Shown here: positions 6,264-61,207 of the stretch, in pieces
Position numbering within the stretch: the first letter of the stretch is position 1
How the letters are laid out: the number at the start of each line of letters is the position of its first letter
NCBI RefSeq assembly: GCF_003991155.1
Contig: NZ_CP031293.1
From: Escherichia coli
Lineage (GTDB): Bacteria; Pseudomonadota; Gammaproteobacteria; Enterobacterales; Enterobacteriaceae
Direction: 5' to 3' (one strand)
Length of the DNA: 64,000 bases
The notes under the pieces: model-generated
What the model was told of the DNA's origin: nothing
Database searches by the model: none
What the model saw: the letters and a program-made list of their open reading frames with translations, nothing else
Translations under genes and position numbers: made by a program

Positions 6264-6281
6264 CCCAGGAGATAACGGCAG

Positions 6282-8418: not shown

Positions 8419-8422
8419 CGAC

Positions 8423-9837: not shown

Positions 9838-9839
9838 TG

Positions 9840-30255: not shown

Positions 30256-30343
30256 TTTTTTTGCGCTGACTTCAATTATTTAACAGAACAGTGCCTGGTA
30301 GTAACGACAATAATTTACCAAGACAAATAAATAAGACAAACTC

Positions 30344-30377
30344 AGACACGCTCATGCTTGAGACGTGTCTTTTTTAT
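30344..30377 (+). terminator. Rho-independent terminator downstream of zinT
   Basis: AGACACG...CGTGTCT hairpin followed by TTTTTTATT. Confidence 0.7.
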
Positions 30378-40438: not shown

Positions 40439-41011
40439 ATGACAATGGAAATACTTACAGCAATTCTTGTTATCATTACAGGAATTTATGCATTTTTGAC
40501 ATACAAGATGTCGAGAATAAGCGAACGAACAGCTCAGATAATGAATGAGCAAACCGAGGCAATGTCTCGTCCTTATATAATAATCCAGCCAATGGTAAGA
40601 CCTCACTCGCAATTCCTATACCTGAAAATTTATAATAGCGGTAAGACACCAGCCTTGAATGTAAAATTAGAATTAGATAAGGATTTTTATCAGTTCGATG
40701 AACCAACTAAAAACCTAAAAGAAACAAGTGTTTTTACATCAACTATTGATAGCTTAGCGCCCAATCAAGAGTTATTCTTCGCCCTTGGTCAAGGTTGGGT
40801 TATTTTTGGAGAATCCAAAAACCCTTTACCACAACAATTTACAATAACTGCAACGTATAGTTATATGAATAAAGAAGTTGTTGAAAAAAACAATATAGAC
40901 TTAAGCCCTTTCATGCAAAGTGAAGGTGAGAAAAATCCTATTGTTGAAGAGCTTGAAAGAATAAGAAAAACTCAAGAAAAATTGATGAAGGTATCTAACA
41001 AATCGATATAA
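40439..41011 (+). CDS. Hypothetical membrane-anchored protein (190 aa)
   Basis: N-terminal hydrophobic helix ILTAILVIITGIYAFL then soluble domain; RBS AGGAG upstream. Confidence 0.55.
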   Translation: MTMEILTAILVIITGIYAFLTYKMSRISERTAQIMNEQTEAMSRPYIIIQPMVRPHSQFLYLKIYNSGKTPALNVKLELDKDFYQFDEPTKNLKETSVFTSTIDSLAPNQELFFALGQGWVIFGESKNPLPQQFTITATYSYMNKEVVEKNNIDLSPFMQSEGEKNPIVEELERIRKTQEKLMKVSNKSI

Positions 41012-41104
41012 TAAAATATCATTCACCACATTAAATGAAATACAATTCATGCCCCTTCTGTCACTTTCCACAGCGTAGCAGGGGCATTTTGATCCAGCAT
41101 CCTT

Positions 41105-41635
41105 TTAGTTAGCTTTCCAACCATTACTGGTCTTAACTAAATTCATGGCACTATCAGCAGGTTCATTCATCCCTTTAACGCTGGCGAAGGCTTTTTTGTC
41201 AATCCAGCCCGGAACGTCAACCAGCTTCCACGTATAAGTCACGCGAACTACTTTCTGATTACCGTTTCCCGGCTCAGTCCATTCCTTAATCTCGTCAACA
41301 GCACGACGACCAACACAGGCACCGTCTGTTGTGCTCCAGACTTTGGCTTTTTTGCCTTCCTCTGTTATCCCTAATACATTCGAATCATAACCCTGCTCAA
41401 AAACCATCAGGCCCTGCTCAATAAAACCATCGAGGATCACTGAATTCGTCCCTGTGCCAGTCGAATCAAGTCGTGGCTTGGCAAGACAGATGGGGAAGCT
41501 GGTGTTATTGTTATCCAGCGAGAAGCAGTATTTGTCTTGCCCAATCTTGGCATTAATCGCTTTCTCAAACTCACCTTTCTCACCACATCCCGCCAGTGTC
41601 AGAGTTGCGCCTACAACGAGTAAAATCTTCTTCAT
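41105..41635 (-). CDS. Lipoprotein (lipobox LAGC)
   Basis: MKKILLVVGATLTLAGC signal/lipobox; ORF 41105..41659 trimmed to Met9. Confidence 0.6.
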   Translation of the reverse strand: MKKILLVVGATLTLAGCGEKGEFEKAINAKIGQDKYCFSLDNNNTSFPICLAKPRLDSTGTGTNSVILDGFIEQGLMVFEQGYDSNVLGITEEGKKAKVWSTTDGACVGRRAVDEIKEWTEPGNGNQKVVRVTYTWKLVDVPGWIDKKAFASVKGMNEPADSAMNLVKTSNGWKAN

Positions 41636-42054
41636 CTGCTTATCCATCCTGATAATCAAAATTGCGTATGTTTTTTGACCTAATCCGGTCAGGGCTAGAG
41701 TTGTTGCGGGATCCGGCTGATATCACATGGCAAAATCACCGCTTAACCAATTGATAGGATTCAATTCTTTTTGAGGCTCGTCATATCGTTTAAAACGATC
41801 AAAAACAACCATATGATAGTTTTTAACTATCATAAATTGATATTCGATCGATTATAACAATTAATAACCGATCGATATCGCGATTTCAATCGTTATAATC
41901 TATCAATAACTCATTATCGATCTTTTATATCGATCATTATTTCAAGTTCTGATAGCCTTGCAACGCCGAGACCGACGCCATGAGTTTGGTGCAGTAGGAC
42001 GTATAAAACGAAGCAAAGCTCTGTGAGCGGGTTCAGTCTCTTTAACTCATTTAC

Positions 42055-42543
42055 ATGGAGGAAGTAAGAGTGGAAGCAACAAGTATCGTTTTTTTAGTGG
42101 TGCTCTTCGTCATTATCATGACCGCAGCAGTTATACAGAAGAAAAAGCACTACAACAGCTTTACGGAAGTTCTGGACGGCGACATTATTTCGTATGAATG
42201 CCAGCAGACAGGTATTGTAATTGATACTCAAAAACATACTGTCCGTATTTTCAATAAAGATAAAGACAGCACATATACTTTTGATGAAATCCGGGAAATA
42301 AATTATACGCTTTCAGAGGGTGGTAAGTTTTACGGCAATGGAACATTACGAGGTATGAATAATGCGGCTATTGCTAACTGGAGAGAACAACTTTCAGCGA
42401 ATAAACGGTCTGGCCTAAATATTTTAACCGATGATATTAAAAATCCCATGTGGAAAGTTAATGTTCCCCTGAAAAATAAAAGCACTTCAAATCACGAACT
42501 TTGTGAGCGATGGATGCTGGTATTTAAAAAGTATGTTTTCTGA
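42055..42543 (+). CDS. Hypothetical membrane-anchored protein (162 aa)
   Basis: N-terminal TM segment SIVFLVVLFVIIMTAAVI; RBS GGAGGAAG upstream. Confidence 0.55.
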   Translation: MEEVRVEATSIVFLVVLFVIIMTAAVIQKKKHYNSFTEVLDGDIISYECQQTGIVIDTQKHTVRIFNKDKDSTYTFDEIREINYTLSEGGKFYGNGTLRGMNNAAIANWREQLSANKRSGLNILTDDIKNPMWKVNVPLKNKSTSNHELCERWMLVFKKYVF

Positions 42544-42574
42544 GTCTCACCTTTCATCTATTTATGGAACAAAA

Positions 42575-42952
42575 ATGAAAAAATTATTACTTGCTATTTT
42601 TATCATATTACCACTTGGTGGCTGTACGGTTCATGGTAATAAATCCCTAACTGATGAAAATCATCAAACGGTTAAATTAAAAATCGTCAAGGGGAAAACT
42701 ACCCAACAAGAAATTCTTGCTGCCTTTGGAGAGCCTCAGACACGCGCTACGAATGATGGGCAGGAGATGTGGAACTACTCAAGTATGACGGGAGAAAGCC
42801 AACTATCTAACTACATACCGGGCCTTGCTCTATTGACCAATAGCAGCACGGCACACATTAAATCACTGGATATCTGGTTTAAGGGTGATGTTGTGGAACG
42901 TTATGATTTTCGTCAGACTGCAAGTAAGACATCTCGTGGCCTGCTTGATTAA
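42575..42952 (+). CDS. Small lipoprotein (about 125 aa)
   Basis: MKKLLLAIFIILPLGGC lipobox; ORF 42503..42952 trimmed. Confidence 0.6.
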   Translation: MKKLLLAIFIILPLGGCTVHGNKSLTDENHQTVKLKIVKGKTTQQEILAAFGEPQTRATNDGQEMWNYSSMTGESQLSNYIPGLALLTNSSTAHIKSLDIWFKGDVVERYDFRQTASKTSRGLLD

Positions 42953-43001
42953 TATGTGTATATATAGGCCACAAATAGTTGTGGCCCTTTTCCGTTATCA
43001 T

Positions 43002-43613
43002 CTATTTTTGTTTATATAAATCGTAGGAACTTAATTTTTTAGATTTCTCATAGGCATTTTCAATGTATAAAGATACATCTGCTAAAAATCGGTCTTCTTC
43101 TATCAATGAAATATAAGAACCAGTCAATTGATCATATGATTTGCACTCAGGGCAACAATATTTATCTTCTGAAGTTAAATTAAACCTATTATTATTAATA
43201 ATGTCATATAGTTCAGTTGTGTCAATAGTTCTTGATGAACATCCATCAGGCTTGATTGAAGAAGATACTAACCAGTCATAGCTATTATTAACCTTCATTA
43301 TCACACCAACAATGCCATTAGTTCGGGAAGTGGTTCCTCCTCTCTTGTATTCTTTCAATGCATATTCAATTTCCCAGTCAATCCATTTACTTTTAATCAT
43401 ATTCGGGGAAATAATAACGATTAAAACAGATGTCCCGAAAATCATATTTTTAAGATTGTTCTTTATATTATCTACTGTTGTATTACTTATATCAGGAGAC
43501 TCCGATGTTTCCCCTTTATAGTAAACAGCATCATCACCTAATGCCTTGACAATTTTGTCTCTTAAATCCTGTGCTTCACTATATTTATATGATATGAATG
43601 TTTCATGAGCCAT
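43002..43613 (-). CDS. thsB: Thoeris ThsB, TIR-domain protein (203 aa)
   Basis: N-terminal FISYKYSEA... TIR-like beginning, about 200 aa, immediately downstream of SIR2-SLOG gene. Confidence 0.75.
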   Translation of the reverse strand: MAHETFISYKYSEAQDLRDKIVKALGDDAVYYKGETSESPDISNTTVDNIKNNLKNMIFGTSVLIVIISPNMIKSKWIDWEIEYALKEYKRGGTTSRTNGIVGVIMKVNNSYDWLVSSSIKPDGCSSRTIDTTELYDIINNNRFNLTSEDKYCCPECKSYDQLTGSYISLIEEDRFLADVSLYIENAYEKSKKLSSYDLYKQK

Positions 43614-43629
43614 AACTTCACCTAATATA

Positions 43630-45066
43630 TTATTTATTCAGTTTGTTTATGATTTTTATTACAACTTCTATTGTTTTTTTTACCGAAAAATCTTTTTCAG
43701 TAAGCTCAGACAAATCATTATATATCCATTCATTACTTCCATAATATTTCTTAGGATCTTGTGATATTTGTTCAAATATATATTTAGACATATACCCGGT
43801 ATTGGGTAAAGGAATTGGTACAAGGCCATGTTGAACAGCAATCTCAAACTCTCTAAATACTCCCCTAGCATTTACTATATCATTATTTTCCTCTTGTTTA
43901 TTTCCAAAAATAAACAATGCAATACCACCAAGAGGAATCATTCTCTGTCTATACTCCTCCCAAAGTTCTTGAATATCTTTCCCCTTACTGACAGTTTGTG
44001 GAAATGGTCTAACAATGAGCTGTTCTTCTGATAATTTATCTGGCCTACTATAAATTGCATCCAACGCACCATTTATCACAGAACTTCCGACGCCCCATCC
44101 AAATCCATTCACTATCCTATAATTATTCTTTATAATCTCATATGCTAATGTGTGAATAAAATCTAATGCTTTAGGTCTTTCAAGATCCCCATATTTTTCT
44201 GCACTACCAGAAATAAATATCGTTTTCTTTTTAAATGATTGCTCTATCTTAGCTAGAATTTTAGGGATGTCAGAATATTCATCTATTAATAATACTTGTA
44301 TACCAAATCTCTTGAGATCATCGATTCGCAGTTTTTGTTTTCTGATCTTATAATTTACTGTTTCTTCATCATCTAGGGAATTATTAGCCTCATTCTTCAT
44401 AAAGCAATAGTGTGTCCTCTTGTCCCCAGAATGAGTATACAAACGACTCAAAATGTAATCCAGATTTGGGTCGGTAAAACTAAACCCTATGAATAGAAAG
44501 GTTTTTGATATTAAATCTCCGCTAAGTGCGGTGATAAATGAAGCGTGTGTTCTGTAGTATTTTTCATACTGCTCTTTATATAAAATAGCCTTGGATGGGG
44601 ACGAAATATCACCATGCATTTTATATACTATCGCGTCTCGCTTAGGTCGTGTTGTATTTAAATCATCTATGTTTCTTTTTACATCTGCAATTTTGTAAAC
44701 TTTCCGCAGACTATCTTCAATTAAAGTGTCATAGTTTGTTGTCCAAAATGTCTTAATCGGTAAACGAGCAATTATATTATGAACCTCTGATGGCTCGGCT
44801 TGCTCAGAAAACTCTTCGATTATCTTCCTTGTGAGTTTTGTAGCCCCTTTCTTTTCATTAACATGAAATTGAGCAAGCGATATTAGATCGTCTTCTTTAT
44901 TAATGTCTAAACTAAGCTCTTCTGCTATATCGCTAAGTAATTCTTTCCAATCAACATAACCTTGACTTTTAGACATTCCTGCGCCAGAAAAAATAGCAGC
45001 ACAATCATTTTCAAGATCTTTAACAAAATCTTTTATGAAAACTTCAATTTCATTACTAAACGTCAT
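43630..45066 (-). CDS. thsA: Thoeris ThsA, SIR2-SLOG NADase effector (478 aa)
   Basis: N-terminal SIR2-like motifs (FSGAGMS, TTNYD, MHGD) and C-terminal SLOG-like glycine-rich region (FISGSAEKYG...GFGWGVGSSVINGALD); start set at MTFSNEIEV with GGAG RBS. Confidence 0.8.
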   Translation of the reverse strand: MTFSNEIEVFIKDFVKDLENDCAAIFSGAGMSKSQGYVDWKELLSDIAEELSLDINKEDDLISLAQFHVNEKKGATKLTRKIIEEFSEQAEPSEVHNIIARLPIKTFWTTNYDTLIEDSLRKVYKIADVKRNIDDLNTTRPKRDAIVYKMHGDISSPSKAILYKEQYEKYYRTHASFITALSGDLISKTFLFIGFSFTDPNLDYILSRLYTHSGDKRTHYCFMKNEANNSLDDEETVNYKIRKQKLRIDDLKRFGIQVLLIDEYSDIPKILAKIEQSFKKKTIFISGSAEKYGDLERPKALDFIHTLAYEIIKNNYRIVNGFGWGVGSSVINGALDAIYSRPDKLSEEQLIVRPFPQTVSKGKDIQELWEEYRQRMIPLGGIALFIFGNKQEENNDIVNARGVFREFEIAVQHGLVPIPLPNTGYMSKYIFEQISQDPKKYYGSNEWIYNDLSELTEKDFSVKKTIEVVIKIINKLNK

Positions 45067-45274
45067 TACACTTATCTCCATTTTAACTATTATTCCCAAA
45101 AGTAGAGAATAAACCTTTCAACCGGAGTTCATGAAACAGCATCTAAAAATATTCTGCCGGATACGAGTAAAATCATACTGGATATAAAAACAGTTGTCGA
45201 GAACTAAAACAATTGAAAACATGGCCAGATGGCATAGATAATATTACATACGAAAATTATTAACCAGATAATAT

Positions 45275-46237
45275 TCACGATGGTGATGTTTCATCGGACA
45301 TCCTTACATTATAAAGAAAAACCAGATGCATATTTACATCATTTCTTTTCTTAAAATAGCTATAACGCTGGAGGCTCAGCCATTTTGATGTTGCCAATAC
45401 GTATGGGCAGCCCTCCTTCCTGCTGGCACAACTTCTTAATGGATTGCCACTCCGCTTTTCAGACTCCATGTGAGAAGTGAGCGAATCAAAAGCACCGTCG
45501 GCTACGACGATGGTAGGTTCTTCATCTGTTTCATTGCCGATCGACTCCGTATTTGTGCTTTCAGCACGTTCTTCTTCCAGTTCAGCCAGACTCGCTTTCA
45601 GCTCATCAAGGCTGCTGGCTGCGTCTTTTGGTGCATAGAAGAACAGCCCGCTAATGAAGATGGCTTCCATAACCTCTCTAAAAGAAAACGAGGTATCGCC
45701 ATAAACAAAGCAACTGTGCTTGGAACTCTTCACACCCGATACGTTTTTCTTCAGCAAACCGTCTTTCGGTGAAGTCATTAATGTCTGTTTGCTATAGAGG
45801 ATTACAGGAAGATTTTTAATTTGTTGAACATCGCCGCTGATACTCCAGCGTTCTTTATCTCCTTTGATAAAGCCGGAAGCATCACAGCTACTTTCTATGT
45901 CAAACTCATCAGTCGGGAAGCGCTCGCGATTAAAATAGGTCGAAAAATCCTCCCCTTCTTCCATATCCTGACGCTTGTAAGCGCGATAAACCGAGCTTCG
46001 ACGGTCAATTCCGATCCATTCAATATCCCATGCCGTTGGCCCGGACGGTTTTCTTACCTCATCTATATAAGCACCAACATCTCTGTCCAGATAAGCTGCT
46101 AACAAAGCCTTCCATGGTTCTATTGCCAGAAAGATACTTGCCAGCGTTGTTCCTTCTTCAATCAGAACGGTATGGTGGAAGAACCGGAGAAGAAAGAACG
46201 GATCGGTATTGGCTATGACGTTCTGGATGGATAGCAA
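45275..46237 (-). CDS. Hypothetical protein (320 aa), co-oriented immediately upstream of thsA
   Basis: Long ORF with higher GC than neighbours; acidic central segment; no family recognised. Confidence 0.5.
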   Translation of the reverse strand: MLSIQNVIANTDPFFLLRFFHHTVLIEEGTTLASIFLAIEPWKALLAAYLDRDVGAYIDEVRKPSGPTAWDIEWIGIDRRSSVYRAYKRQDMEEGEDFSTYFNRERFPTDEFDIESSCDASGFIKGDKERWSISGDVQQIKNLPVILYSKQTLMTSPKDGLLKKNVSGVKSSKHSCFVYGDTSFSFREVMEAIFISGLFFYAPKDAASSLDELKASLAELEEERAESTNTESIGNETDEEPTIVVADGAFDSLTSHMESEKRSGNPLRSCASRKEGCPYVLATSKWLSLQRYSYFKKRNDVNMHLVFLYNVRMSDETSPS

Positions 46238-46369
46238 TGGAACGGCAGCGGTTTCATCGTAATTGGATTGAAACCGTAGTATTGCATCGGAACAAAAATT
46301 AACTTACCTTCCATTGCTCATCCTTCTCCTGTAGTTATCAGACTAAATATTTTACCAGATCATAGGTTA

Positions 46370-46756
46370 TTATCGCATTTTGCTTTTTACTGATTCATAT
46401 TCGTTGGTGTGATCCTTAAAAGTGCTTATTGCTTTGGGCAATGACCTGTTAAATAAACCATTAATCTCCTGTGATGCTTTTCCGTTTCTGACAACCATAA
46501 TATATCCAAGAGTCAGATCTTGTCTTATCATTGGATTCAATGATTCTATACCTATGCTAATCCCCGTATTTTTGTATTTAGCAACCGGATACCCAACTGA
46601 ACTATGGATAACAATATTGCCGCTATCTGCAAGCCTTGATAACATTCTGTCGCTGTATATCGATTTTCTTAAATCCTCTAAAACAGGGATATAGTGTTTA
46701 TCCATTGTTCCTGTTAAAGTTGTAGGTATATAGATCTTTGTTTTTATTTTTAGCAT
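46370..46756 (-). CDS. Hypothetical protein (128 aa)
   Basis: ORF co-oriented with downstream cluster; start uncertain. Confidence 0.4.
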   Translation of the reverse strand: MLKIKTKIYIPTTLTGTMDKHYIPVLEDLRKSIYSDRMLSRLADSGNIVIHSSVGYPVAKYKNTGISIGIESLNPMIRQDLTLGYIMVVRNGKASQEINGLFNRSLPKAISTFKDHTNEYESVKSKMR

Positions 46757-46883
46757 GATATTTTCCTGTTATTGTTTTTATTTAATACCATGCAACTGAT
46801 CGTAATATCAAAGATATTTATTATGTTCAATATAACTTTTAAAACATCTGCGATTTTATAGTTTCTTCACTCATCTGTGTGAG

Positions 46884-47108
46884 TTATGAAACCAAACGAA
46901 TATAAATATTTTTCAACCTGTCTTTATCACAACGACTTACAGACTCTGATAACAGATAATGACTATAATTATTGACACAAATATTGTTGCCGTTTTCAAG
47001 GGTTAATTTCAATCCAAGTTCTGTATCTTCAACTTTGTTTATAATACAGATCATAAATGGTGTTTTGTCATGTGGATGGAAGAGTGTGATCATTTTGATA
47101 TTGTTCAT
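46884..47108 (-). CDS. Hypothetical small protein (74 aa)
   Basis: Short ORF at head of minus-strand cluster. Confidence 0.3.
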   Translation of the reverse strand: MNNIKMITLFHPHDKTPFMICIINKVEDTELGLKLTLENGNNICVNNYSHYLLSESVSRCDKDRLKNIYIRLVS

Positions 47109-48022
47109 TGTGTTTGTCCTTTTTTATTTATTACTGGTTAATACTCTATCGCAAGTGTAAAAATCAAATATATTTTCATTTATTAATGATTTTACTTCTT
47201 ATTATTAAACTTCTTTTTGAAAAGATTTTTATCTCTGTGCTTATGCACGGCTACGCCCTAAAACTGACATTTTGTATTTTATTTTACTACTATGAGGTAA
47301 TAAGTGAATGTATTCGATCATAGTCAGATCTATTTTCCTTTTAACTTTTAATTCGGTTCCTATGTTTGAACATAGCATTCCTCCTCTGACATATAGCATT
47401 TGCTCTTAAATGTATAGGAAAACTATATCTTTAGTAGCAGCACTTCGTGATTGTTGCCAACAATCACTTTGCTGAACAGGGCTTGTCCCTGTTAATTATG
47501 GATTTATCCAAAAAAAGATCGCGTCGAAGACGCATATAAAGTAAAAGGAAAATTAATTAAGCTCTCACAGTAAATGCAGCGGTTCGTGATTGTATGCAAC
47601 AATCACTTCGCTGTAATAACATAGTAAGGAAGATAAAGTTCAATAACGTTAGTAGGTGCCATTTATATAAGACACCAATCAACTAAAAAGAAGAACTGTT
47701 TTCTATATTTCATCCTTTTAAACGTCATCCAAAGCTTCGCTATTTGAATAATGAAGAAGAAAAATGCTCTCAAGCCAGTTATAGCTTAAAACAAAGTACG
47801 CACTCTCGGGAGTTAAAGTCCCGAATCCCGGTACTTAAGATGATAATCATTATCAATAATAAAAAATAATACAGCTCCTATTTTTACTTATTTCAGAACT
47901 TGAAGTTTTTAATAACCAAACTTCAAGTATTATTATTTTTATAAAAACTGCACTTAAAATATTGACTAACTAAAAATAGTACGTTATCTACTTTATATAA
48001 AAAGAATAAAGGGGAAAGTATT

Positions 48023-48568
48023 ATGTTAGATAATAAAATAAAAAAATCAAGAAGAGGTCTACCTCGCCATGTAAAAAACCCATTCCTTAATGATACAAAT
48101 ATACATACAAAAACAGGTATCAGACGTATCACAACAGGAAAAGATCGCTTAGCCGTAGTAAATGAAAATACAGGAGAACAGGTTGGGCATGGTGGTTTCT
48201 TTCAGTCAATGGAAGTAGACAAGACACAGTTCGTGAAGCTTTATGTGGATGGCGTATCAGCTATTGAGGGTTTATCCTCATCCGGTAAGAAAGTATTTAA
48301 GATACTGTATCTTGCTATTAGAGACAATAAAGATACAGATACGATATTAATGTCATTCGATATTGTTGATCAAGAGATTGTAAAAATATCAAGAACGACA
48401 TATTTCAAAGGGATGAAAGAACTTGCTGACAAGAAATTTATTGCTGAGACCATGATACAGAACTATTATTTTATTAATCCAGACTATATGTTTAATGGTG
48501 ATCGTTTAACTTTCATGAAAACTTATTACTTGAAGGGTAAAAAGAAAACAGCGAATAATAAAAATTAA
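48023..48568 (+). CDS. Hypothetical protein, possible winged-helix DNA-binding / replication-initiator-like protein (181 aa)
   Basis: RBS GGGGAAAG upstream; basic N-terminus and a central segment that reads like a wHTH; weak call. Confidence 0.45.
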   Translation: MLDNKIKKSRRGLPRHVKNPFLNDTNIHTKTGIRRITTGKDRLAVVNENTGEQVGHGGFFQSMEVDKTQFVKLYVDGVSAIEGLSSSGKKVFKILYLAIRDNKDTDTILMSFDIVDQEIVKISRTTYFKGMKELADKKFIAETMIQNYYFINPDYMFNGDRLTFMKTYYLKGKKKTANNKN

Positions 48569-48722
48569 TTACCAACGGGAAAACAGGTTAAAAAATCGCC
48601 GTAATAAACTACGATTACATTAAAGGTATTTTCTTGCCAAGAGAGAAACATCACCAATTTGACACCTGAACCATATCTCGTAATATAAATATATCAACCA
48701 TTTTATTTACGAGGTATTTCTT

Positions 48723-49202
48723 ATGAGAAAAGTAAAAACAGACAACAGTGATTTAATCGAATACGTAAATACAGTTAAAGAACTAAAAAATCACATTCCA
48801 ATAGAAGAATACAGAAATGAATATCGTAAACTGCGTTCCGATGATATTCCATTGGTTAAAGCTCAGAAATTTAAATCTGCCCATACCGAACTTCGCAGAC
48901 TTGAAAAAAAGAGAGAGTCTCTTATTGAATACTTTATTGACGAGTTAAATCCCATCAGCAGTTCAAAAGCTAACACATCAGCGAGATCAACTAGTAATCT
49001 CGATTTATTTAACGAACGCGTGTTATACCGTAAGGCTATTTCAGAAAAGAGTGATGAAGAAATAGTAGCCTTGGTCATAAAACAACGCACAGAAGCCGCT
49101 GTTGAGTTCCAACGTTCAATTGAACATAGTCTTGAGCAACTATCTCGTATCTCGTCAGAGTTCGAACCAGCAAGCCAAAAGCGCAGGAAAATGTCTCTTT
49201 AA
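48723..49202 (+). CDS. Hypothetical coiled-coil protein (159 aa)
   Basis: ORF with charged, helical-looking sequence. Confidence 0.45.
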   Translation: MRKVKTDNSDLIEYVNTVKELKNHIPIEEYRNEYRKLRSDDIPLVKAQKFKSAHTELRRLEKKRESLIEYFIDELNPISSSKANTSARSTSNLDLFNERVLYRKAISEKSDEEIVALVIKQRTEAAVEFQRSIEHSLEQLSRISSEFEPASQKRRKMSL

Positions 49203-49359
49203 AACGACTCTATGCTATTCGTGTGAAATGTGATGTATTAGATTGCTTATGCAATAATGTTTACTATATTATTTACTGACTGTTTTTTTTGATTTTTCCA
49301 ACAGCACCGTAAGCATTATTTTTATTAATCGCCTATTTTAAAACACCGGATGACATACT

Positions 49360-49764
49360 ATGAGTGAAGCTCTCAAGGCACTGAACAATATTCGTACACT
49401 TCGCGCACATGCTCGTGAAACAGATCTGACAACTCTGGAAGAGATGCTGGAAAAGCTCTCTGCTGTCGTTGAAGATCGCCGTGAGGAAGAAAATTCAGCC
49501 CGTAAAGAACAAGAAGAACGTCAGGCTAAACTGGAAGCCTTCCGCCAGAAATTGTTAGAAGACGGTATCGATCCTACAGAACTACTCGCTGCTGTTAGTT
49601 CATCCCAGCCTAAAGCCAAATCAACTCGTGCTCCTCGTCCTGCTAAATACAAATATACAGATGAAAACGGTAATGAGCAGACTTGGACGGGTCAGGGCCG
49701 TACTCCTAAAGCAATCGCCGCTGCTATCGAAGCTGGTAAGACACTGGAAGACTTTGCAATCTAA
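49360..49764 (+). CDS. H-NS-family nucleoid-associated protein (horizontally acquired paralog, Hfp/Hns2-like; 134 aa)
   Basis: [33 protein letters not shown]...[13 protein letters not shown] closely parallels H-NS N-terminal dimerisation and C-terminal DNA-binding motif. Confidence 0.88.
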
Positions 49765-49827
49765 CCGCTACAGCATATCCGGGCTTCACTGTTCTCAAGA
49801 TAACAGGCCCGGAAAATATTCGATTTT

Positions 49828-50208
49828 TCATCCAAGGCTATCCCAGTCTGGCAGGTTGTTAACGACCTTTCGCCACCAATGATACGCAGCCATAAGAACA
49901 CCAAAACAAATACCTGCGACGACGCTTGAGACAAATGCAGTGCCCGGTTGTATCCCTGTATCCTTCCAAGTAAAAAACCACATACAGATCCCCCATGCCG
50001 GACCAAACCATCCACCCATCAACAAAGTGATTTGCCAGAATGAGGCAAAAGGTAGCGGTGGTATCTTGAGTCCAGCTTTCCATGCGAGGTGTAGCAAAGG
50101 AGGGGCATAATTACTTCGCCACATCTTCTTGCTTTCCATGATGGCAATAGCGTGTTTCTTTTTAGCTTCAAAGCCCATACGGTTCCCTCCAGCTCCACCT
50201 TTACTCAT
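49828..50208 (-). CDS. Hypothetical small membrane protein (126 aa)
   Basis: Hydrophobic, Trp-rich segments (WQITLLMGGWFGPAWGICMWFF). Confidence 0.45.
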   Translation of the reverse strand: MSKGGAGGNRMGFEAKKKHAIAIMESKKMWRSNYAPPLLHLAWKAGLKIPPLPFASFWQITLLMGGWFGPAWGICMWFFTWKDTGIQPGTAFVSSVVAGICFGVLMAAYHWWRKVVNNLPDWDSLG

Positions 50209-50282
50209 CTATCGATAAAAAGCCACAATAGACAATAATGATTATCAATTCCATGTATGTAAGTCAAAAATAACTCAAATAG

Positions 50283-50525
50283 TCATTCCTTTAGATCTTC
50301 TGGCGAAACCCGGTCACATGCCATTTTCTCAAGCATTCTTTGTAATCTTTTCATTTTCAACTTACGCGCTTTTTTCTCACCAATCTCCTGATAGTATTCT
50401 TCACGACGTTCGTTGACCACGCTCCTGAAATTTTTCAAAAGCTGTTCAAGTGTTTTGATGTCAGTAGTTGCGGCTTCCGCTTGGATTTTTTTATACATAT
50501 ACATCACATGAAATTCATCGATCAT
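50283..50525 (-). CDS. Truncated H-NS-like protein (H-NST-like, 80 aa; dimerisation domain only)
   Basis: TLEQLLKNFRSVVNERREEYYQEIGEKKARKL resembles the H-NS N-terminal oligomerisation helix and lacks any DNA-binding domain. Confidence 0.65.
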   Translation of the reverse strand: MIDEFHVMYMYKKIQAEAATTDIKTLEQLLKNFRSVVNERREEYYQEIGEKKARKLKMKRLQRMLEKMACDRVSPEDLKE

Positions 50526-50598
50526 TTTTTAGCTCCTTGAATAGACAAATAATATTTGTTATCAGCCCCAAGAAGGGGCCGATAGACACCAGAACATA

Positions 50599-50955
50599 TC
50601 AACATATTGATTCCGCCAGAACCGTATAATGCATTTTGGCTAATGCCTGCTTAACCCCCTTAAAATCCACCTCAGATAGTTTTTCAGCCGCGTTCTTTTT
50701 CCATGCTTTTTTCAGAAGATGTTTCTCCGCATTTCTCATCGCCAGATCGATTAGCCTACAGACAAACTCATGATCCATTACATGCGTTATAATCATATTA
50801 CTGGTCGTTTTATCCTTTGAGTTAAAAAGCTCCGCGTAGATATGCAAGGACACAACATAAAAGATTTCAGTATTTTTATTTTTAAATGTATTCATTGGCT
50901 TTTCCTTTTGGTTAATATTAAAAATGAAATGCTGTAGCATTAGCGGTATACACAC
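50599..50955 (-). CDS. Hypothetical protein
   Basis: ORF, start uncertain (possible Met21). Confidence 0.4.
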   Translation of the reverse strand: MCIPLMLQHFIFNINQKEKPMNTFKNKNTEIFYVVSLHIYAELFNSKDKTTSNMIITHVMDHEFVCRLIDLAMRNAEKHLLKKAWKKNAAEKLSEVDFKGVKQALAKMHYTVLAESIC

Positions 50956-51242
50956 TTATAGACAATCCAAAGCTGACGAAGGTGTTGTTTTACCTTACTG
51001 TGGCTTACTTCTCCATAAATCCGATTCCTTTGGTCTTCTTCTGTGTCATCATAAAAATGATATCTCGTTTTTTTAATGATACTTTCCATAATGTCATTCA
51101 TATTGTATTTATTGTTGAGAAAATAATAAAAATCATCTGGTGCATTCCTCTGCAATTCGTCCATATAGTTCCTAAAATAACATTCGGCTTGTTCAATAAA
51201 CTGTTTTGTCGTAATAAGTTCTATCTTCATATTCTTCTCCAT
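50940..51242 (-). CDS. Hypothetical protein (100 aa)
   Basis: ORF co-oriented with alpA-like gene. Confidence 0.4.
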   Translation of the reverse strand: MEKNMKIELITTKQFIEQAECYFRNYMDELQRNAPDDFYYFLNNKYNMNDIMESIIKKTRYHFYDDTEEDQRNRIYGEVSHSKVKQHLRQLWIVYKCVYR

Positions 51243-51311
51243 TATTATTTAGGATAATAAAATGCCCTGTGCGAACAGTTATCTGTTCGACACGAGATCT
51301 TGTTTCTGTTT

Positions 51312-51530
51312 TTATGCAGCGTTCTGGCGTGAGTTTCGAATAGTCGTTTCAATCCATTCATCAATCTCACTTTCAACAAAAGCAACACACCTCGGACCTA
51401 TTTTTACTCTGTCAGGAAAGTTTCCTTCCTTAATACGCTCATATAAAGTCGTGCGACTGAATCCCACTCGATTTAAAACATCAGGAACGCGGATAAATCG
51501 TTTTACGCTGGTTTCAATATTTTCTTTCAT
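51312..51530 (-). CDS. alpA: AlpA-family phage/island transcriptional regulator (excisionase-like HTH), about 72 aa
   Basis: KRFIRVPDVLNRVGFSRTTLYERIKEGNFPDRVKIGPRCVAFVESEIDEWI matches the AlpA/MerR-like HTH pattern; start trimmed to MKENIET. Confidence 0.75.
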   Translation of the reverse strand: MKENIETSVKRFIRVPDVLNRVGFSRTTLYERIKEGNFPDRVKIGPRCVAFVESEIDEWIETTIRNSRQNAA

Positions 51531-51745
51531 TGTCTGTCCTCTATTATTGTAAGTAATCTCTATGAGATTTCGCTTTTCTCTATGTTGTTTCGACGTGAAC
51601 AATGATAGCGATTTTGCTTATGGTAATTTAGGGACGTTCAAAGAAGTTTTTTTTGAAAAATTCGAAGGGGCACGGATGGAAAGATAACGGTTAACACTGG
51701 ATGAGATCACGTTCGCTCGGAGCGAACGTAACCCTTTTACTTGGC

Positions 51746-52639
51746 TTATTTTTTCTTATTCCTGTCGTCTTCTACATGCTTTTCAACAGGGGAGTCTTTC
51801 AAGTGGTTGTTTTCCATCATGTAATCTTCAAGCGATTTCAGATAGCTCGCATCCGTCAGAAAAGCCATTGCTAACGGGTAGTCCGTTGCCTTTAGCATTC
51901 CTTCATCACGATCGTTGTCGCTGTCCTCGTGAAGCAGCGAAGAAATCAGTGAAAGCGGGATTTTAATGCCGTTATCTTCTCCCCAGAAGATCAGGTCCAT
52001 CATCGGGATAAGACGATATTCAATGATTTTTCTGAATGTGCTTTTGCCGAAACGATACTCTCTTGGCGCTGGAGACTTCATCTTAAGCTGTCTCTTCCAT
52101 TGAGGGATCAGCACTTTCAGATGTTCAATGATTTCTTCAGTTGATGCCTCTTCCAGATGAATATCGACAGTAATGCGTGAAAGATTATTAAGGGATGTTT
52201 CTTTTAGATACTCGGACAGAAATTCGGATTCGCTTAACGCGGAAAGCTCAGGCGTGGCTTCGGTTAATGCCAGCGTTTTCGCATAAAATTGCGCGTGGCT
52301 TCGTGTCGTAGGATTTACCGCGTAGGTTCTGGCAAGCTCATGTCCAAGGGTAGCGGTATCACCACTGAAAAAGATTTCACCGCTGAGGATCTTGTTGCGG
52401 TAATCATCCAGCATTAATCGGTTAAAGGTAGGTATGGTGTTCCGGCTCAACAACATTCTGTAAGCCAAGATACGCCGCTCAACCTCAACATAAAACTGCT
52501 GTAAGGTGAGTTTCTCTATCGCCTCATATCGTTCCACATCAAACCATGCTTCCAGTGCTTTCCTGATTTCACTTCTTTTCATCCATCCTCCAACAATCCA
52601 TTTCCTTTGATATATCTTCACAGGATCCGTTTGGAACAA
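51746..52639 (-). CDS. Hypothetical protein (297 aa) adjacent to serU
   Basis: ORF with RBS; no family recognised. Confidence 0.5.
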   Translation of the reverse strand: MFQTDPVKIYQRKWIVGGWMKRSEIRKALEAWFDVERYEAIEKLTLQQFYVEVERRILAYRMLLSRNTIPTFNRLMLDDYRNKILSGEIFFSGDTATLGHELARTYAVNPTTRSHAQFYAKTLALTEATPELSALSESEFLSEYLKETSLNNLSRITVDIHLEEASTEEIIEHLKVLIPQWKRQLKMKSPAPREYRFGKSTFRKIIEYRLIPMMDLIFWGEDNGIKIPLSLISSLLHEDSDNDRDEGMLKATDYPLAMAFLTDASYLKSLEDYMMENNHLKDSPVEKHVEDDRNKKK

Positions 52640-52860
52640 TTGAAGTTCAACTGTTTTGTCATCAGAGACGGGGGAATGGCTAAGTTGTTGTTAAGAGTGT
52701 GAACTCGAGAGCATAAAAGTGGATGCCCGACGCGCGGCAAAATGGTAAAAAACAGCATCAGTAGTAAGAAAAATTGAGCGAGAGAAAGGAATTTTAATGC
52801 AGGGATTTATGCATGACAAAATCAAAAATACTTTGTAAGTGATTGATTTTGTTGAATGAT

Positions 52861-52950
52861 TGGCGGAGAGAGGGGGATTTGAACCCCCGGTAGAGTTGCC
52901 CCTACTCCGGTTTTCGAGACCGGTCCGTTCAGCCGCTCCGGCATCTCTCC
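52861..52950 (-). tRNA. serU: tRNA-Ser (anticodon CGA)
   Basis: Reverse complement GGAGAGATGCCGGAGCGGCTGAACGGACCGGTCTCGAAAACCGG...GGTTCAAATCCCCCTCTCTCCGCCA has long variable arm and CGA anticodon. Confidence 0.92.
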
Positions 52951-54017: not shown

Positions 54018-54183
54018 AATTTTAGTCTTGAGACATCTCTATAAGTCTCAGGATAGTTAAAAAACAAGAACTTATCTTTACCCGGTTGTCTCGCAAGAGG
54101 CTGCTGGGTTTCTTGACATCCATAGTTTTTAGGGGCCTAATCAGGGGCCTCACGGTTCGGTGAGCAAACGGAGCCCCCACGCT

Positions 54184-55446
54184 ATGGCATTAACAGACAC
54201 CGCTATTCGCAAGACTAAACCCTCTGACAAACCCTTCAAAATGACGGACAGTTCTGGACTGTACCTGTTGATCAAACCTAACGGCTCAAAACTCTGGTAT
54301 ATGAAGTACCGCATCGACGGCAAAGAGAAGAAACTGGCCTTTGGCCCCTACCCGGAGATCTCCCTGTTGCAGGCTCGCCGCCTGCGCGAAACAGCACGCA
54401 ATAACATTCATGCAGGCGTCGATCCGGCTGCGGTGAAGCAAACCGAGAAACAGAAGAGGAAAAACGGGCAGACGTTCAGCCAGATCGCCATCAACTGGCA
54501 TAGCGAGCATAAACGCTGGTCTGAGCATTACGCGAAAACGGTTATGCGCAGGCTGGAAATGTACGTTTTCCCGGATATCGGGGATCGCCTTATCGAGGAG
54601 ATCGAAACGGAGGATTTGTTATTCACGTTGCGCAAGGTAGAGAGTAAAGGCTTTCTGGAAATCACCGCGCGGCTGAAAAACTACGTCACCGATATCATGC
54701 ACTACGCGATGAAAAAGAAACTGCTCAAAGCGAACCCGGCGCTGTATCTGGACGGTGAGTTTGCCGCGCCAGAAACCAGTCACTACCCGGCCCTGTCGCT
54801 GGATAAGTTGCCTGAGCTTTTATCCCGGACAGAGAATTACTGCGGCAGGCTGCTGACGAAATACGCCCTCAAACTTTCGCTGCTGTTTTTCGTGCGCTCC
54901 AGCGAGCTACGTTTTGCCCGCTGGAGTGAAATCGACTGGCAGCAAAAACTGTGGGTGATCCCGGAAGAACGCGAGCAGATCGAAAACGTGCGCTTCTCTT
55001 ACCGGGGGGCGAAAATGAAAATCCAGCACATTGTGCCGCTGTCGGATCAGGCGATTGCGATACTGAAGCAGATCGAGGCCCTCTCCGGGCATCTGGCCTT
55101 TATTTTTCCCGGCGAATACGACCAGAACAAGTGCATGAGCGACAACACCGTCAACAAGGCGCTGCGCGTGATGGGTTACGACACCAAAAAGGATATCTGC
55201 GGGCATGGCTTCCGGGCAATGGCCTGTAGTGCGCTGAGCGAATCGGGATTATGGAGCAAAGAAGCCATTGAAAAGCAGATGAGCCACCAGGAAAGAAACA
55301 GCGTCCGTGCTGCCTATATTCACAAGGCTGAATATCTGGAGGAACGGATCGAGATGATGCAGTGGTGGTCAGATTATCTTGATGCAAACAGTGACGGGTA
55401 TGTCTCGGCTTACCAGTATGCCCGCCGCCTAAAACAGGCGTCGTAA
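54184..55446 (+). CDS. P4-like tyrosine integrase of asnT-associated island
   Basis: MALTDTAIRKTKPSDKPFKMTDSSGLYLLIKPNGSKLWYMKYR N-terminus typical of P4-family integrases; directly downstream of the tRNA 3' end. Confidence 0.9.
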   Translation: MALTDTAIRKTKPSDKPFKMTDSSGLYLLIKPNGSKLWYMKYRIDGKEKKLAFGPYPEISLLQARRLRETARNNIHAGVDPAAVKQTEKQKRKNGQTFSQIAINWHSEHKRWSEHYAKTVMRRLEMYVFPDIGDRLIEEIETEDLLFTLRKVESKGFLEITARLKNYVTDIMHYAMKKKLLKANPALYLDGEFAAPETSHYPALSLDKLPELLSRTENYCGRLLTKYALKLSLLFFVRSSELRFARWSEIDWQQKLWVIPEEREQIENVRFSYRGAKMKIQHIVPLSDQAIAILKQIEALSGHLAFIFPGEYDQNKCMSDNTVNKALRVMGYDTKKDICGHGFRAMACSALSESGLWSKEAIEKQMSHQERNSVRAAYIHKAEYLEERIEMMQWWSDYLDANSDGYVSAYQYARRLKQAS

Positions 55447-55569
55447 GTTAACAAAGCATCAGAGGGGGAAAAGGTATATTCCCCCTTTGTGCGTTTCAAA
55501 TGTCGATGCTGACTGTAGCTTTTAAACTAAATTACTGGATAAAAAGTAGCTTTTAAGCTACTATCTTTT

Positions 55570-55743
55570 ATGAAAACGATAAAGACCTACATAACTGCCG
55601 ACGGGCGAGATCTGTATGCAGAGTTTTTTAAAGGGTTACGCAACCCCATCGCGAAGGCAACGATCGCTTCCCGGATCAACCGGATGGCTTCGGACAATTT
55701 TGGCGACCATAAGCCCTGCCGGGAAGGTGTCTGGGAACTGTAG
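55570..55743 (+). pseudogene. Addiction-module killer-type toxin gene (RelE/ParE superfamily), 3'-truncated by IS insertion
   Basis: MKTIKTYITADGRDLYAEFFKGLRNPIAKATIASRINRMASDNFGDHKPCREGVWEL then stop inside the IS left end. Confidence 0.6.
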
Positions 55744-55746
55744 TGG

Positions 55747-57709
<1,963 letters not shown>

Positions 57710-57988
57710 ATCTCGTTCTCCTTCATAACATTCCAGATTCCAGAGGTACTTCGTGCTGCTATAACGTACCCGACAACCGGAACACCGGGACAGACAATGG
57801 ATGCGGTATTCGGTTATAAAACGGTATATATTTAAATAGTGAACACCATGAGCGTAATATATTTATTTGATGAATGTATTGATGAAAGGAAAATTGCTTT
57901 TTAGCTATTATCGGCGGGTGTATAATTTAGTCCGTTTTTTTCAAATAAATAATCGCAAATAGCATCTGATGCCACTGAGGACGCAGGT

Positions 57989-58780
57989 ATGAATTTCAGA
58001 CCAGCAGTATATTTATGTGCAGCAACATTTTTACTGGCTGGCTGTGCGCCACGCTCCCCCATTGATGCGAAGAAAACGGGCGCATCCGCCAAAGAGAGCA
58101 GCATCAGCAAAAACACAACGGCACAACTGACCGATAAAGATATTTTTGGCAATGAAACCACGCTGGCAGTTTCTGAGGAAGATATTCAGGCAGCACTGGA
58201 AGGCGAAGCGTTCCGCGTGCCGCTGAATTCACCCGTGATTCTGGTTCAATCCGGTAGCCGCGCACCGGAGGCCATGATGCAGCAGGAAATGAGTAAATAT
58301 TATACCGTTGCCACATTCTCCGGTATCCCGGACAGACAAAAACCTGTGACCTGTAACAAAGACAAAAACAAAGATAAAAGCGAGAACCAGGATGTTGCTG
58401 TTGTTGAGAATATGAACTGGATGCAGGCACTGCGTTTTGTGGCTGCAAAAGGACATCAGAAATCGATTATTGTTTACCAGGATACGTTGCAGACAGGAAA
58501 ATATGACTCTGCGCTGAAATCAACAGTGTGGTCAGATTATAAAAATCAAAAACTAACTGACACAATGTCATTACGTTTTTTGGTTCGCTTCACTCTGGTG
58601 GATGTGGCAACTGGCGAGTGGGCTACCTGGTCACCTGTAAATTATGAGTCCAGAGTTATCTTCCCTCAGACTGAAAAAAAGGGTGCAATCACTACCGATG
58701 TGACAGAGCAACAAATCACCCAGCTTAAGCAGAAAACATACGCAGCAATGACCAGGGATCTGGTGAACCGCTATCAGTAA
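57989..58780 (+). CDS. Lipoprotein (263 aa)
   Basis: Signal/lipobox FLLAGCAP; Lys/Asp-rich central region. Confidence 0.6.
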
Positions 58781-58988
58781 GCAACATCCCCCTTACCTGC
58801 CGCTAATAAATAGTGGCGGCAGGCACTGGCACGAAAAACTCCCTGATGCTGACGATTATTAAACATCTTTCTGGTATTTTCTGTTGCAAACCATCCCATT
58901 CATAGCATATCAGTATCCATCATTTTAAATTTACAGTGATTGTATGCCTCAAAGCTAATCGCTTCCGATGATGGTGCCCGCAATAAAT

Positions 58989-59288
58989 TTAATCGGAATC
59001 GTCTTCTGTATCCTCCTCATATGAATCCCTGACGGTCCCCAGTTTTGTATTGCCATTGGCAGGCGTCCCATCTCCCATCAGAACGTCGATGTCATAGCCA
59101 GGATATTGTTTCTTTATATTGCGTTTGAACTCTGAGACCGTCGAATCATTTTTGGACATTTTCACCCGCTGATATTGTGGCATATCTTTTTTATCACCCC
59201 GGACGTCCTTACCATCGGGTGTTTTGAAGCGAACATCAAATCCCTGTACATCCCAGATTTTCTTTTCAACATTTTTTACTAATGGCAT
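58989..59288 (-). CDS. Hypothetical small protein (99 aa) downstream of hcp
   Basis: ORF with acidic C-terminal tail. Confidence 0.45.
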   Translation of the reverse strand: MPLVKNVEKKIWDVQGFDVRFKTPDGKDVRGDKKDMPQYQRVKMSKNDSTVSEFKRNIKKQYPGYDIDVLMGDGTPANGNTKLGTVRDSYEEDTEDDSD

Positions 59289-59340
59289 TTTTATTCTCTC
59301 TTCAGAAAATTACACTAAATCAAAAAAAGTATCGCTATTC

Positions 59341-59820: not shown

Positions 59821-59841
59821 ATTAAGCTCCTTGGTCCGGGG

Positions 59842-61197: not shown

Positions 61198-61207
61198 CCC
61201 TGTCTCC

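Follow-up and report, generated by a model that had tools for sequence, protein, structure and literature searches.

Two adjacent genes on the minus strand were found at positions 43,002 to 45,066 of the window, which is the whole 64,000-nucleotide stretch of Escherichia coli DNA analyzed here, and both open reading frames lay where the earlier note had placed them. The genes and the signals around them were as follows:

43630..45066, minus strand: thsA, encoding a 478-aa effector with a SIR2 NADase domain (residues ~1-260) and a ligand-sensing SLOG/STALD domain (residues 266-475)
43002..43613, minus strand: thsB, encoding a 203-aa predicted TIR sensor and signal synthase, with a TIR core (residues ~1-105) and a C-terminal extension (residues ~106-203)
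42955..45363: Thoeris cargo cassette of 2409 bp and 32% GC, without homology to sister serU islands (blastn against two sister islands)
45172..45200, minus strand: promoter-like site TCGACA-17-TATGAT upstream of thsA and inside the cassette, a consensus match only
42967..42986: hairpin rich in GC, GGCCACAA-ATAG-TTGTGGCC, in the interval where the lipoprotein gene and thsB converge

The open reading frame of thsA extended over 489 codons (43630-45099, minus strand), and the ATG at 45066, preceded by a GGAG Shine-Dalgarno sequence, gave the protein of 478 residues. The thsB gene followed downstream on the same strand after a gap of 16 bp and possessed its own ribosome-binding site (AGGTGA). The same two coding sequences were annotated by RefSeq in identical genomes under the generic names SIR2 family protein and TIR domain-containing protein. 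The site at 45172..45200 was only a candidate promoter, and promoter-like sites in the region were no more frequent than in shuffled sequence. The hairpin was a probable terminator; it was specific to the cargo, and a different hairpin occupied that place in the sister islands. Furthermore, a search for a third cassette gene found no ORF of at least 50 aa in the 297 bp upstream of thsA, and the Rfam search of the whole window gave no match inside the cassette. The 320-aa ORF at 45275-46237, upstream of thsA, was rejected as a third component: it is a backbone gene that also occurs in Thoeris-free islands, it is frameshifted here, and it matched no defence family.

Judged from their sequence, the two genes very probably form an intact anti-phage system, type I Thoeris, which the E. 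coli chromosome carries on a mobile island. ThsA matched the PADLOC ThsA model PDLC00407 over its full length (E = 8.2e-203). The SIR2 domain that the earlier note had read at the N-terminus was recovered by Pfam as SIR2_2 (residues 106-232, E = 3.1e-29), and the C-terminal SLOG domain as STALD (PF18185, residues 266-475, model positions 1-210 of 211, E = 2.4e-71). In addition, ThsA aligned end to end with the solved ThsA proteins 8wc0, 6lhx, 8bto and 7uxt, the PDB matches having E-values of 8e-191 for 8wc0 and 7e-136 for 6lhx, and its identity was ~60% to the E. coli ThsA (8WC0) and 47% to the Bacillus cereus ThsA (BcThsA). The alignment to characterised ThsA that had been proposed as a check on the catalytic Asn/His showed both residues to be kept: N111 and H151 corresponded to the catalytic N112 and H152 of BcThsA. 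Mutation of these residues in BcThsA abolished the NADase activity, and N112A abolished defence as well (PMC7272460). Two other assignments were considered and rejected. A type II Thoeris reading was set aside, as Pfam gave no Macro match in ThsA and the best PADLOC models were STALD-type ThsA; a DSR2 reading was also dropped, since the NCBIfam Dsr2 match was confined to the SIR2 domain (residues 5-201) and scored 68 bits where the cutoff is 1400.

ThsB begins with MAHETFISYKYS, in which FISYKYS, the TIR-like motif noticed earlier, occupies residues 6-12, and both Pfam and PADLOC assigned the protein to the TIR family. It matched the PADLOC ThsB model PDLC00428 over its full length (E = 2.6e-85), while the Pfam matches were ThsB_TIR (E = 1e-11), TIR_2 (E = 3e-6) and TIR (E = 6e-4). 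The structure 9vyl, ThsB1 of B. dafuensis (BdThsB1), was matched by sequence (E = 3e-18) and was also the best Foldseek match (TMq 0.79) of the AlphaFold model of ThsB, whose confidence was moderate (pLDDT 68); it was followed by ThsB-Tad3 (9b7d), EcThsB (8wcf), BcThsB (6lhy), and plant and animal TIR domains. BdThsB1, the nearest characterised ThsB, shared only 28% identity with the protein. Among 24 homologues of 63-90% identity, S75-x-W77-x3-E81 was invariant, as were C125, C154 and C157 in the C-terminal extension, and ThsB belongs to a distinct and very widespread 203-aa subfamily bearing these cysteines. From its alignment to the Glu of EcThsB and BdThsB1, E81 is likely to be the catalytic glutamate. 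It was equated with E85 of BcThsB by motif position and not by direct superposition; the E85Q mutant shows that residue to be essential for defence.

The earlier note had regarded assignment of the two proteins to non-SIR2 and non-TIR families as evidence against a Thoeris pair. The outcome was the opposite, with the 478-aa protein placed in SIR2_2 and STALD/ThsA and the 203-aa protein in ThsB_TIR/ThsB. The order and sizes of the genes were like those of type I Thoeris, as had been claimed, and the domains and catalytic residues agreed as well. Chance was excluded by the long ORFs in DNA of 32% GC together with the profile E-values (8e-203 for ThsA and 2.6e-85 for ThsB) and the Pfam matches. 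The literature searched contained no characterisation of, or experiment on, the thsA-thsB operon, and 8WC0 was mentioned only incidentally.

The signal, the trigger, the depletion of NAD+ and the phage range would be those suggested by characterised homologues. By this analogy, ThsB would remain inactive until a phage-derived cue is detected, whereupon its TIR site, with E81 as the catalytic residue, would make an isomer of cyclic ADP-ribose from NAD+, 3'cADPR being the most probable. The isomer would then bind the SLOG pocket of ThsA (S286, G287, S288, F355, Q357, R373, K390, G402 and E406), and the ThsA tetramer would be reorganised or would form filaments. Finally, the SIR2 site (N111/H151) would open and hydrolyse NAD+ to exhaustion, so that phage replication could no longer be supported, which would amount to abortive infection. 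An abortive phenotype should not be assumed for the window system, because the related type II Thoeris on a sister E. coli island does not act like a classical abortive-infection system (bioRxiv 10.64898/2026.01.22.701046).

The nature of the signal was considered further from the ligand pocket. In BcThsA, 3'cADPR is contacted by S290, R371, K388, G289, G399, E403 and Q359 (bioRxiv 10.1101/2022.05.07.491051), and the further pocket residues S288 and F357 were also identical in the window protein. Of the ten BcThsA positions compared (S288, G289, S290, L326, F357, Q359, R371, K388, G399 and E403), nine were identical. The sole difference was at the adenine-stacking position, where L326 is replaced by W324, and a Trp is likewise found in the E. 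coli ThsA 8wc0. The ligand preference of ThsA is therefore unproven. It is conceivable, though quite unlikely, that the system is a signalling variant within type I, in which the nucleotide made by ThsB and preferred by ThsA is not 3'cADPR but, for example, 2'cADPR or a different ADPR derivative. Besides the Trp, the distinct 203-aa subfamily of ThsB with its Cys-bearing extension and the several cADPR isomers reported for type I systems (bioRxiv 10.64898/2026.01.22.701046) speak for such a variant. However, the other nine pocket residues are as in BcThsA, L326 contacts the ribose of the ligand through its backbone amide, stacking on the adenine is still feasible for a Trp (bioRxiv 10.1101/2022.05.07.491051), and BcThsA is activated by the product of BdTIR1.

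The operon was acquired horizontally as a cargo cassette of low GC, which occupies a variable slot of a larger element, and homology to the sister islands ended at the stop codons of both flanking backbone genes. The features of this element were as follows:

30925..52874: mobilizable island integrated at serU, ~21.9 kb, 38% GC, bounded by a 14-bp direct repeat
52861..52950, minus strand: tRNA-Ser(CGA) gene serU, the 3' end of which is the integration site
31103..32323, plus strand: tyrosine recombinase/integrase of the island
38338..39819, plus strand: MobQ-family relaxase of the island backbone (annotation of an identical locus)
48023..48568, plus strand: RepL-type replication/maintenance protein of the island backbone (annotation of an identical locus)
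39898-40380 and 40439-41011: the two genes of slot 3, encoding 160 aa and 190 aa, the latter with an N-terminal hydrophobic stretch

The location on a serU island given by the earlier note was correct, as indicated by the tRNA gene, the 14-bp direct repeat TGGCGGAGAGAGGG at 30925-30938 and 52861-52874, and the uninterrupted empty site in K-12 E. coli. Its description as a defence island was overstated. The backbone genes mark the island as an integrative mobilizable element, which also encodes a TraD-like protein, a type IV pilin/PilV and H-NS (two H-NS-family genes), and a PADLOC scan of ~30 further ORFs, from the island and the neighbouring asnT region, recognised no defence gene. A DpdH-like match on the MobQ relaxase was weak and partial (E = 2.8e-6) and was discounted, and NCBIfam gave only sub-threshold lipoprotein and glyoxalase matches for ten neighbour proteins. 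A weaker version of the description was supported, in that one variable slot of the sister islands holds either type II Thoeris or a retron RT.

Since the cassette is the cargo of a mobilizable element with an integrase, MobQ and RepL, and the content of the slot is swapped between sister islands, its main beneficiary could be the island itself, for which it would be a stabilisation or addiction module or a weapon against competing mobile elements, with protection from lytic phage being secondary. This was considered very unlikely: the sequence suggested no toxin-antitoxin arrangement, and all characterised SIR2-SLOG/TIR pairs are phage-triggered. Such a role would also be compatible with an anti-phage Thoeris system; the two do not strictly exclude each other.

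The exact operon was present in 48 of 5426 complete E. coli genomes (at least 99.8% identical). Both reading frames were undamaged in 47 of these genomes and kept every key residue, and in the remaining one thsA was split by an IS3 element. The insertion and the frameshift in the flanking 320-aa backbone gene might indicate an operon that is silent or decaying and has no current function; moreover, xenogeneic silencing is plausible because the island is AT-rich and carries two H-NS-family genes. The intactness of the pair in nearly all carriers argues against this, and there is only a slight chance that it is so. Beyond E. coli, the thsA-thsB pair was also adjacent in Cupriavidus and Cellulophaga, so that the pairing is conserved in more than one phylum, while the ThsB homologue of Serratia fonticola had no adjacent ThsA.

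The serU island of uropathogenic E. coli (UPEC) was integrated at the same tRNA gene, and its backbone blocks were 84-96% identical to those of the window island. The sister islands, including the tcpC island of UPEC, held other cargo in the Thoeris slot, such as a ComEA-family protein in strain F11, and their type II Thoeris or retron lay in a different slot. This slot 3, downstream of mobQ, was occupied by type II Thoeris in UPEC, where the effector matched Macro-type ThsA models of PADLOC, and by a retron RT resembling type VI in a further relative. For the two slot-3 proteins of the window, Pfam gave only a sub-threshold YunG-like match (E = 0.003) and noise, and tblastn against plasmids gave few distant matches that did not co-occur, with an uninformative context on a Vibrio plasmid. 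The serU element might represent a family of modular mobilizable islands in which two or more immunity slots have exchangeable contents, and the window pair at 39898-40380 and 40439-41011 would then be a new anti-phage system; as a whole this reading is unlikely. The slot-2 genes (35833-37798) and the ComEA-family protein of F11 might be further anti-phage systems.

The sister island of UPEC strain F11 carries tcpC, and so reportedly does the CFT073-type serU island, which has been classed as a pathogenicity island (PMC5521745). This raised the alternative that the TIR protein acts on the host as a virulence factor, the role first described for TcpC, rather than sensing phage. Such a role is extremely unlikely. 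ThsB is not a homologue of TcpC: the TcpC model PDLC00417 was absent from its PADLOC match list, by which a TcpC-like reading was rejected, and the N-terminal region of the 307-aa TcpC is missing. Furthermore, translation of ThsB is linked to that of a SIR2-SLOG effector, the pair has homologues in Cupriavidus and in Bacteroidota from the environment, and even TcpC is by now regarded as the ThsB1 component of a type II Thoeris (PMC11204291).

With the assignment to type I Thoeris, two generically named RefSeq genes of E. coli gain a specific and testable function, and a native enterobacterial type I Thoeris is added whose ThsB subfamily differs from that of the solved E. coli system. The family of serU 'pathogenicity islands' appears as a mobilizable carrier that swaps immune cassettes: type I Thoeris occupies one slot in the present lineage, and relatives have a retron or type II Thoeris (tcpC) in another. 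Knowledge of how Thoeris works is unchanged, and the practical value lies in a guide to which unassigned island genes to try for phage defence.

Compared with known systems, the type II Thoeris of UPEC (TcpC as ThsB1, ThsB2 and a TM-macro ThsA; strains CFT073, F11 and ATCC 25922) belongs to the same island family and likewise provides TIR-based signalling immunity. It differs in its TM-macro effector, which is not SIR2-SLOG, and in its signal of the His-ADPR/IAD type. Its genes lie directly downstream of mobQ, where the window holds the two genes of no known family. The type I reference system of B. cereus MSX-D12 (BcThsA, 6LHX/8BTO; BcThsB, 6LHY) has the same domain and gene order, the same catalytic N/H and nine of the ten pocket residues; it differs by L326 in place of W324, and the window host is Gram-negative. 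BcThsB was undetectable from the window ThsB by sequence and gave a weak fold match (TMq 0.44). Among solved structures, TIR1 of B. dafuensis FJAT-25496 (BdThsB1, 9VYL) was closest to the window ThsB, with similarity along the full length that took in the C-terminal extension, although the Cys positions were only partly shared in the pairwise alignment. TIR1 and its SIR2-SLOG ThsA provide phage defence, and TIR1 makes a cADPR isomer that activates ThsA; ThsB is encoded by two genes in the B. dafuensis operon and by a single gene in that of the window. The E. coli Thoeris EcThsA/EcThsB (8WC0/8WCF) comes from the same species and is of the same type I, with a SIR2-SLOG ThsA followed by a TIR ThsB. 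EcThsA shares 59-60% identity with the window ThsA over the full length and has Trp at the adenine-stacking position as well. However, EcThsB (155-160 aa) and the window ThsB (203 aa) belong to different subfamilies (E = 0.069 by sequence, TMq 0.55 by fold), and the EcThsA/EcThsB pair lies in a P2-like prophage, at a hotspot flanked by ogr and gene D, in contrast to the serU mobilizable island of the window pair. The operon is an ordinary case of the well-known type I Thoeris, correctly recognised as such, and is itself a new member.

Both open reading frames described in the earlier note were found on the minus strand, and the operon was laid out as follows:

43630-45099 (-), long thsA ORF, 489 aa from a TTG
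45066 (-), ATG start of thsA used by RefSeq, giving 478 aa and preceded by GGAG
43002-43613 (-), thsB ORF, 203 aa, beginning MAHETFISYKYS
42967-42986, GC-rich hairpin just beyond the thsB stop
45172-45200, candidate promoter-like site about 110 bp upstream of thsA

The two genes were separated by 16 bp, and thsB had a ribosome-binding site of its own (AGGTGA). Promoter-like sites were no more frequent in this region than in shuffled sequence; therefore, 45172-45200 is a candidate only. The window is a piece of E. coli chromosome. Many complete genomes of the species contained the 2.4-kb region around thsA-thsB with 100% identity, and the annotated equivalent, NZ_CP041996.1, had the same gene order as the window.

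The PADLOC ThsA model matched ThsA over its full length (E=8e-203). Pfam matches to SIR2_2 over residues 106-232 (E=3e-29) and to the SLOG family STALD (Sir2- and TIR-associating) over residues 266-475 (E=2.4e-71) agreed with the earlier reading of an N-terminal SIR2 and a C-terminal SLOG domain. Furthermore, ThsA aligned end to end with the solved E. coli ThsA 8wc0 (E=8e-191, about 60% identity) and the B. cereus ThsA 6lhx (E=7e-136, 47% identity). In B. cereus ThsA, N112 and H152 are required for NAD+ cleavage, and N112A also kills defence (PMC7272460); the equivalents are N111 and H151, so the catalytic Asn/His pair that the earlier note wished to see aligned was present. The 3'cADPR contacts in the B. 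cereus SLOG domain are S290, R371, K388, G289, G399, E403, L326 and Q359 (bioRxiv 10.1101/2022.05.07.491051), and S288 and F357 are conserved pocket residues (PMC7272460). Nine of these ten positions were identical in ThsA, the exception being L326, which was replaced by W324; the same Trp occurs in 8wc0. Membership of the DSR2 family was also considered. The NCBIfam Dsr2 match was partial, covered the SIR2 domain only and lay far under the cutoff; therefore, ThsA does not belong to that family.

The TIR reading of the 203-aa protein was likewise upheld: the PADLOC ThsB model PDLC00428 matched it with E=2.6e-85, and Pfam ThsB_TIR, TIR_2 and TIR all matched. Among solved structures, the only strong relative by sequence was 9vyl (E=3e-18). 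A structure was predicted from an alignment of 24 sequences obtained by homology search, with moderate confidence (pLDDT 68, pTM 0.73). With this model, the top Foldseek match in the PDB was 9vyl, "BdThsB1 with NAD" (TMq 0.79), followed by a ThsB-Tad3 complex, EcThsB 8wcf, B. cereus TIR and ThsB structures, and plant and animal TIR domains. ThsB is a member of the BdThsB1-like subfamily. The motif S75-K-W77-I-D-W-E81 was invariant in the 24-sequence alignment, and E81 aligned with the Glu of EcThsB and of BdThsB1; the corresponding E85Q in B. cereus ThsB abolishes defence (bioRxiv 10.1101/2021.01.06.425286). In the same study, B. dafuensis TIR1 and its SIR2-SLOG ThsA protected against phi29 and SBSphi11, and lysates of infected cells expressing this TIR1 activated B. 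cereus ThsA (bioRxiv 10.1101/2021.01.06.425286). The C-terminal half of ThsB, which is probably the sensing half, held three cysteines (C125, C154 and C157) that were also invariant in the alignment, suggesting a putative metal or structural site.

The homologue search with ThsB returned 2332 proteins at E <=1e-5 from Proteobacteria and Bacteroidota. The best 120 of the 2332 were nearly all 203 aa long (range 202-218), with 63-90% identity, and came from Enterobacterales, Cupriavidus and several Bacteroidota genera. In Cupriavidus and Cellulophaga, the ThsB homologue (65-66% identity) lay directly downstream of a SIR2_2 plus STALD protein of 477 aa and 480 aa, respectively, with 56% and 52% identity to ThsA; therefore, the pair travels as a unit. 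By these identities, the sensor ThsB is no less conserved across phyla than the effector ThsA, and indeed more so. In Serratia fonticola, a 76%-identical ThsB homologue (gene 5001-5612 of the compared locus) occurred without an adjoining SIR2-SLOG ThsA. Its neighbours (5788-10268) were an LD_cluster2 (SLOG-like) protein, a 404-aa TIR_2 protein and an LD_cluster2-patatin protein, and the locus is a possible TIR-signalling system whose effector would be of another kind, a phospholipase.

A SIR2 plus SLOG ThsA defines type I Thoeris (bioRxiv 10.64898/2026.01.22.701046). In the published type I model, ThsB senses infection and its TIR domain turns NAD+ into 1''-3' gcADPR (3'cADPR); the isomer occupies the SLOG pocket, the ThsA oligomer is altered, and NAD+ depletion by SIR2 aborts the infection (PMC7272460, PMC11204291, bioRxiv 10.1101/2022.05.07.491051, 10.1101/2021.01.06.425286). 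ThsA and ThsB have every sequence feature that this model demands. By analogy, ThsB would detect the infection, and its TIR domain would convert NAD+ into a cADPR isomer, 3'cADPR. The isomer would bind the SLOG pocket and change the ThsA oligomer, and the SIR2 domain would then drain NAD+, so that infection would be aborted. With L326 changed to Trp and a ThsB of a distinct subfamily, the preferred isomer might be another one. In addition, type II Thoeris on a sister island causes growth arrest without NAD+ loss (bioRxiv 10.64898/2026.01.22.701046); therefore, the phenotype of the type I operon should not be presumed. A literature search for this particular operon found no paper.

The operon lies on the serU island, whose main features were as follows:

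52861-52950, tRNA-Ser(CGA), serU, followed by mtfA and tRNA-Asn (serU-asnT region)
30925-30938 and the 3' end of serU, 14-bp direct repeat TGGCGGAGAGAGGG
31103-32323, integrase
33057-35130, PilV, type IV pilin and TraD-like protein
38338-39819, MobQ
48023-48568, RepL
32325-33054, 35833-37798, 39652-41104 and 42955-45363, variable slots 1 to 4
39898-40380 (+), slot-3 gene 1, 160 aa, without recognised family
40439-41011 (+), slot-3 gene 2, 190 aa, N-terminal hydrophobic stretch, without recognised family

In K-12, both flanks were contiguous around one repeat copy (an empty site); therefore, the island is a clean 21.9-kb insertion. Its annotated content comprised a tyrosine recombinase, PilV, a type IV pilin, a TraD-like protein, a MobQ relaxase, RepL, two H-NS-family proteins and several DUF proteins, and this make-up suggests an integrative mobilizable element. 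According to a 2017 paper (PMC5521745), the serU island has neither mobilisation nor transfer genes; the current annotation of this island and of the UPEC F11 island contradicts this. About 400-600 bp upstream of repL, a 38-nt repeat occurred in two copies (47437-47474 and 47576-47613; 84% identical, 139 bp apart), each with the palindrome GTGATTGTTG/CAACAATCAC inside; the repeats may be a replication origin, an oriT or a regulator-binding site of the island. Ahead of the att repeat, the match to K-12 was limited to the adjoining 461 bp; yodB (cytochrome b), which in K-12 separates zinT from serU, was missing or replaced (30256-30477). The asnT site is occupied by HPI in many ExPEC strains. 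In the window, it held a T6SS island (54160-63934) with a second integrase adjoining tRNA-Asn, a truncated RelE/ParE toxin gene, an IS3 element, the sRNA isrC (56806-56928) and type VI secretion genes (Hcp, a VasL-domain protein and TssM).

Compared with three sister islands, the backbone blocks were 84-96% identical (the UPEC tcpC island), with four variable slots between them. Slot 4 held the Thoeris genes; homology ended at the stop codons of the two flanking genes, which encode a SEN1984-family lipoprotein and a 320-aa backbone protein. In this slot, F11 carried a ComEA-family protein and CUVET16-559 a DUF4238 pseudogene, and each alternative cargo had its own hairpin. The GC content was 32% in the cassette, 38.6% in the remaining island and 52% in the core chromosome. 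The 320-aa backbone gene (45275-46314, -), directly upstream of thsA and outside the cassette, was frameshifted in the window lineage (a RefSeq pseudogene) and intact in F11; a family search with it gave no match.

The view that this is a defence island stood in part. In F11, slot 3, downstream of mobQ, held TcpC/ThsB1-ThsB2-TM-macro ThsA, which PADLOC recognised as Thoeris. The CFT073 counterpart has been characterised as type II Thoeris (PMC11204291), and in ATCC 25922 the type II system was shown to defend and is flanked by mobQ (bioRxiv 10.64898/2026.01.22.701046). A more distant relative carried a retron-type RT and an HTH protein in this slot. However, in about 30 ORFs of the island and its neighbourhood, PADLOC recognised no further defence protein, and NCBIfam and Pfam added nothing for the unassigned island genes. 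The slot-3 pair itself had no PADLOC, NCBIfam or significant Pfam match. Both genes were present in 70 complete E. coli genomes, and their distant plasmid homologues did not co-occur. As immune systems occupy this slot in relatives, position does count for something; the pair, a candidate on that ground only, is rather unlikely to be a novel defence system.

Of 5426 complete E. coli genomes, 48 had the exact thsA-thsB operon, which was chromosomal every time. In one of them, AR13438 (931-3703 of the compared locus), an IS3-family element splits thsA into two ORFs, which is a natural inactivation. A further 78 genomes had a more distant thsA-like sequence (60-80% nucleotide identity), often part of the gene only. 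In the single example that was examined, E. coli E423 (5981-7896 of its locus), it lay at the ogr-D hotspot, within a P2-like prophage adjoining tRNA-Leu. The ThsA of this prophage cassette matched the 8WC0 sequence, whereas its ThsB partner was the 155-aa, 8WCF type. Since the solved E. coli Thoeris is thus carried by a P2-like prophage, mobile elements of at least two kinds bear type I Thoeris in E. coli, and their ThsB partners are unrelated. The modular-island context is useful and incremental, and a specialist would not find the system surprising: the window operon is a member of an established family whose mechanism and E. coli representatives are already known.
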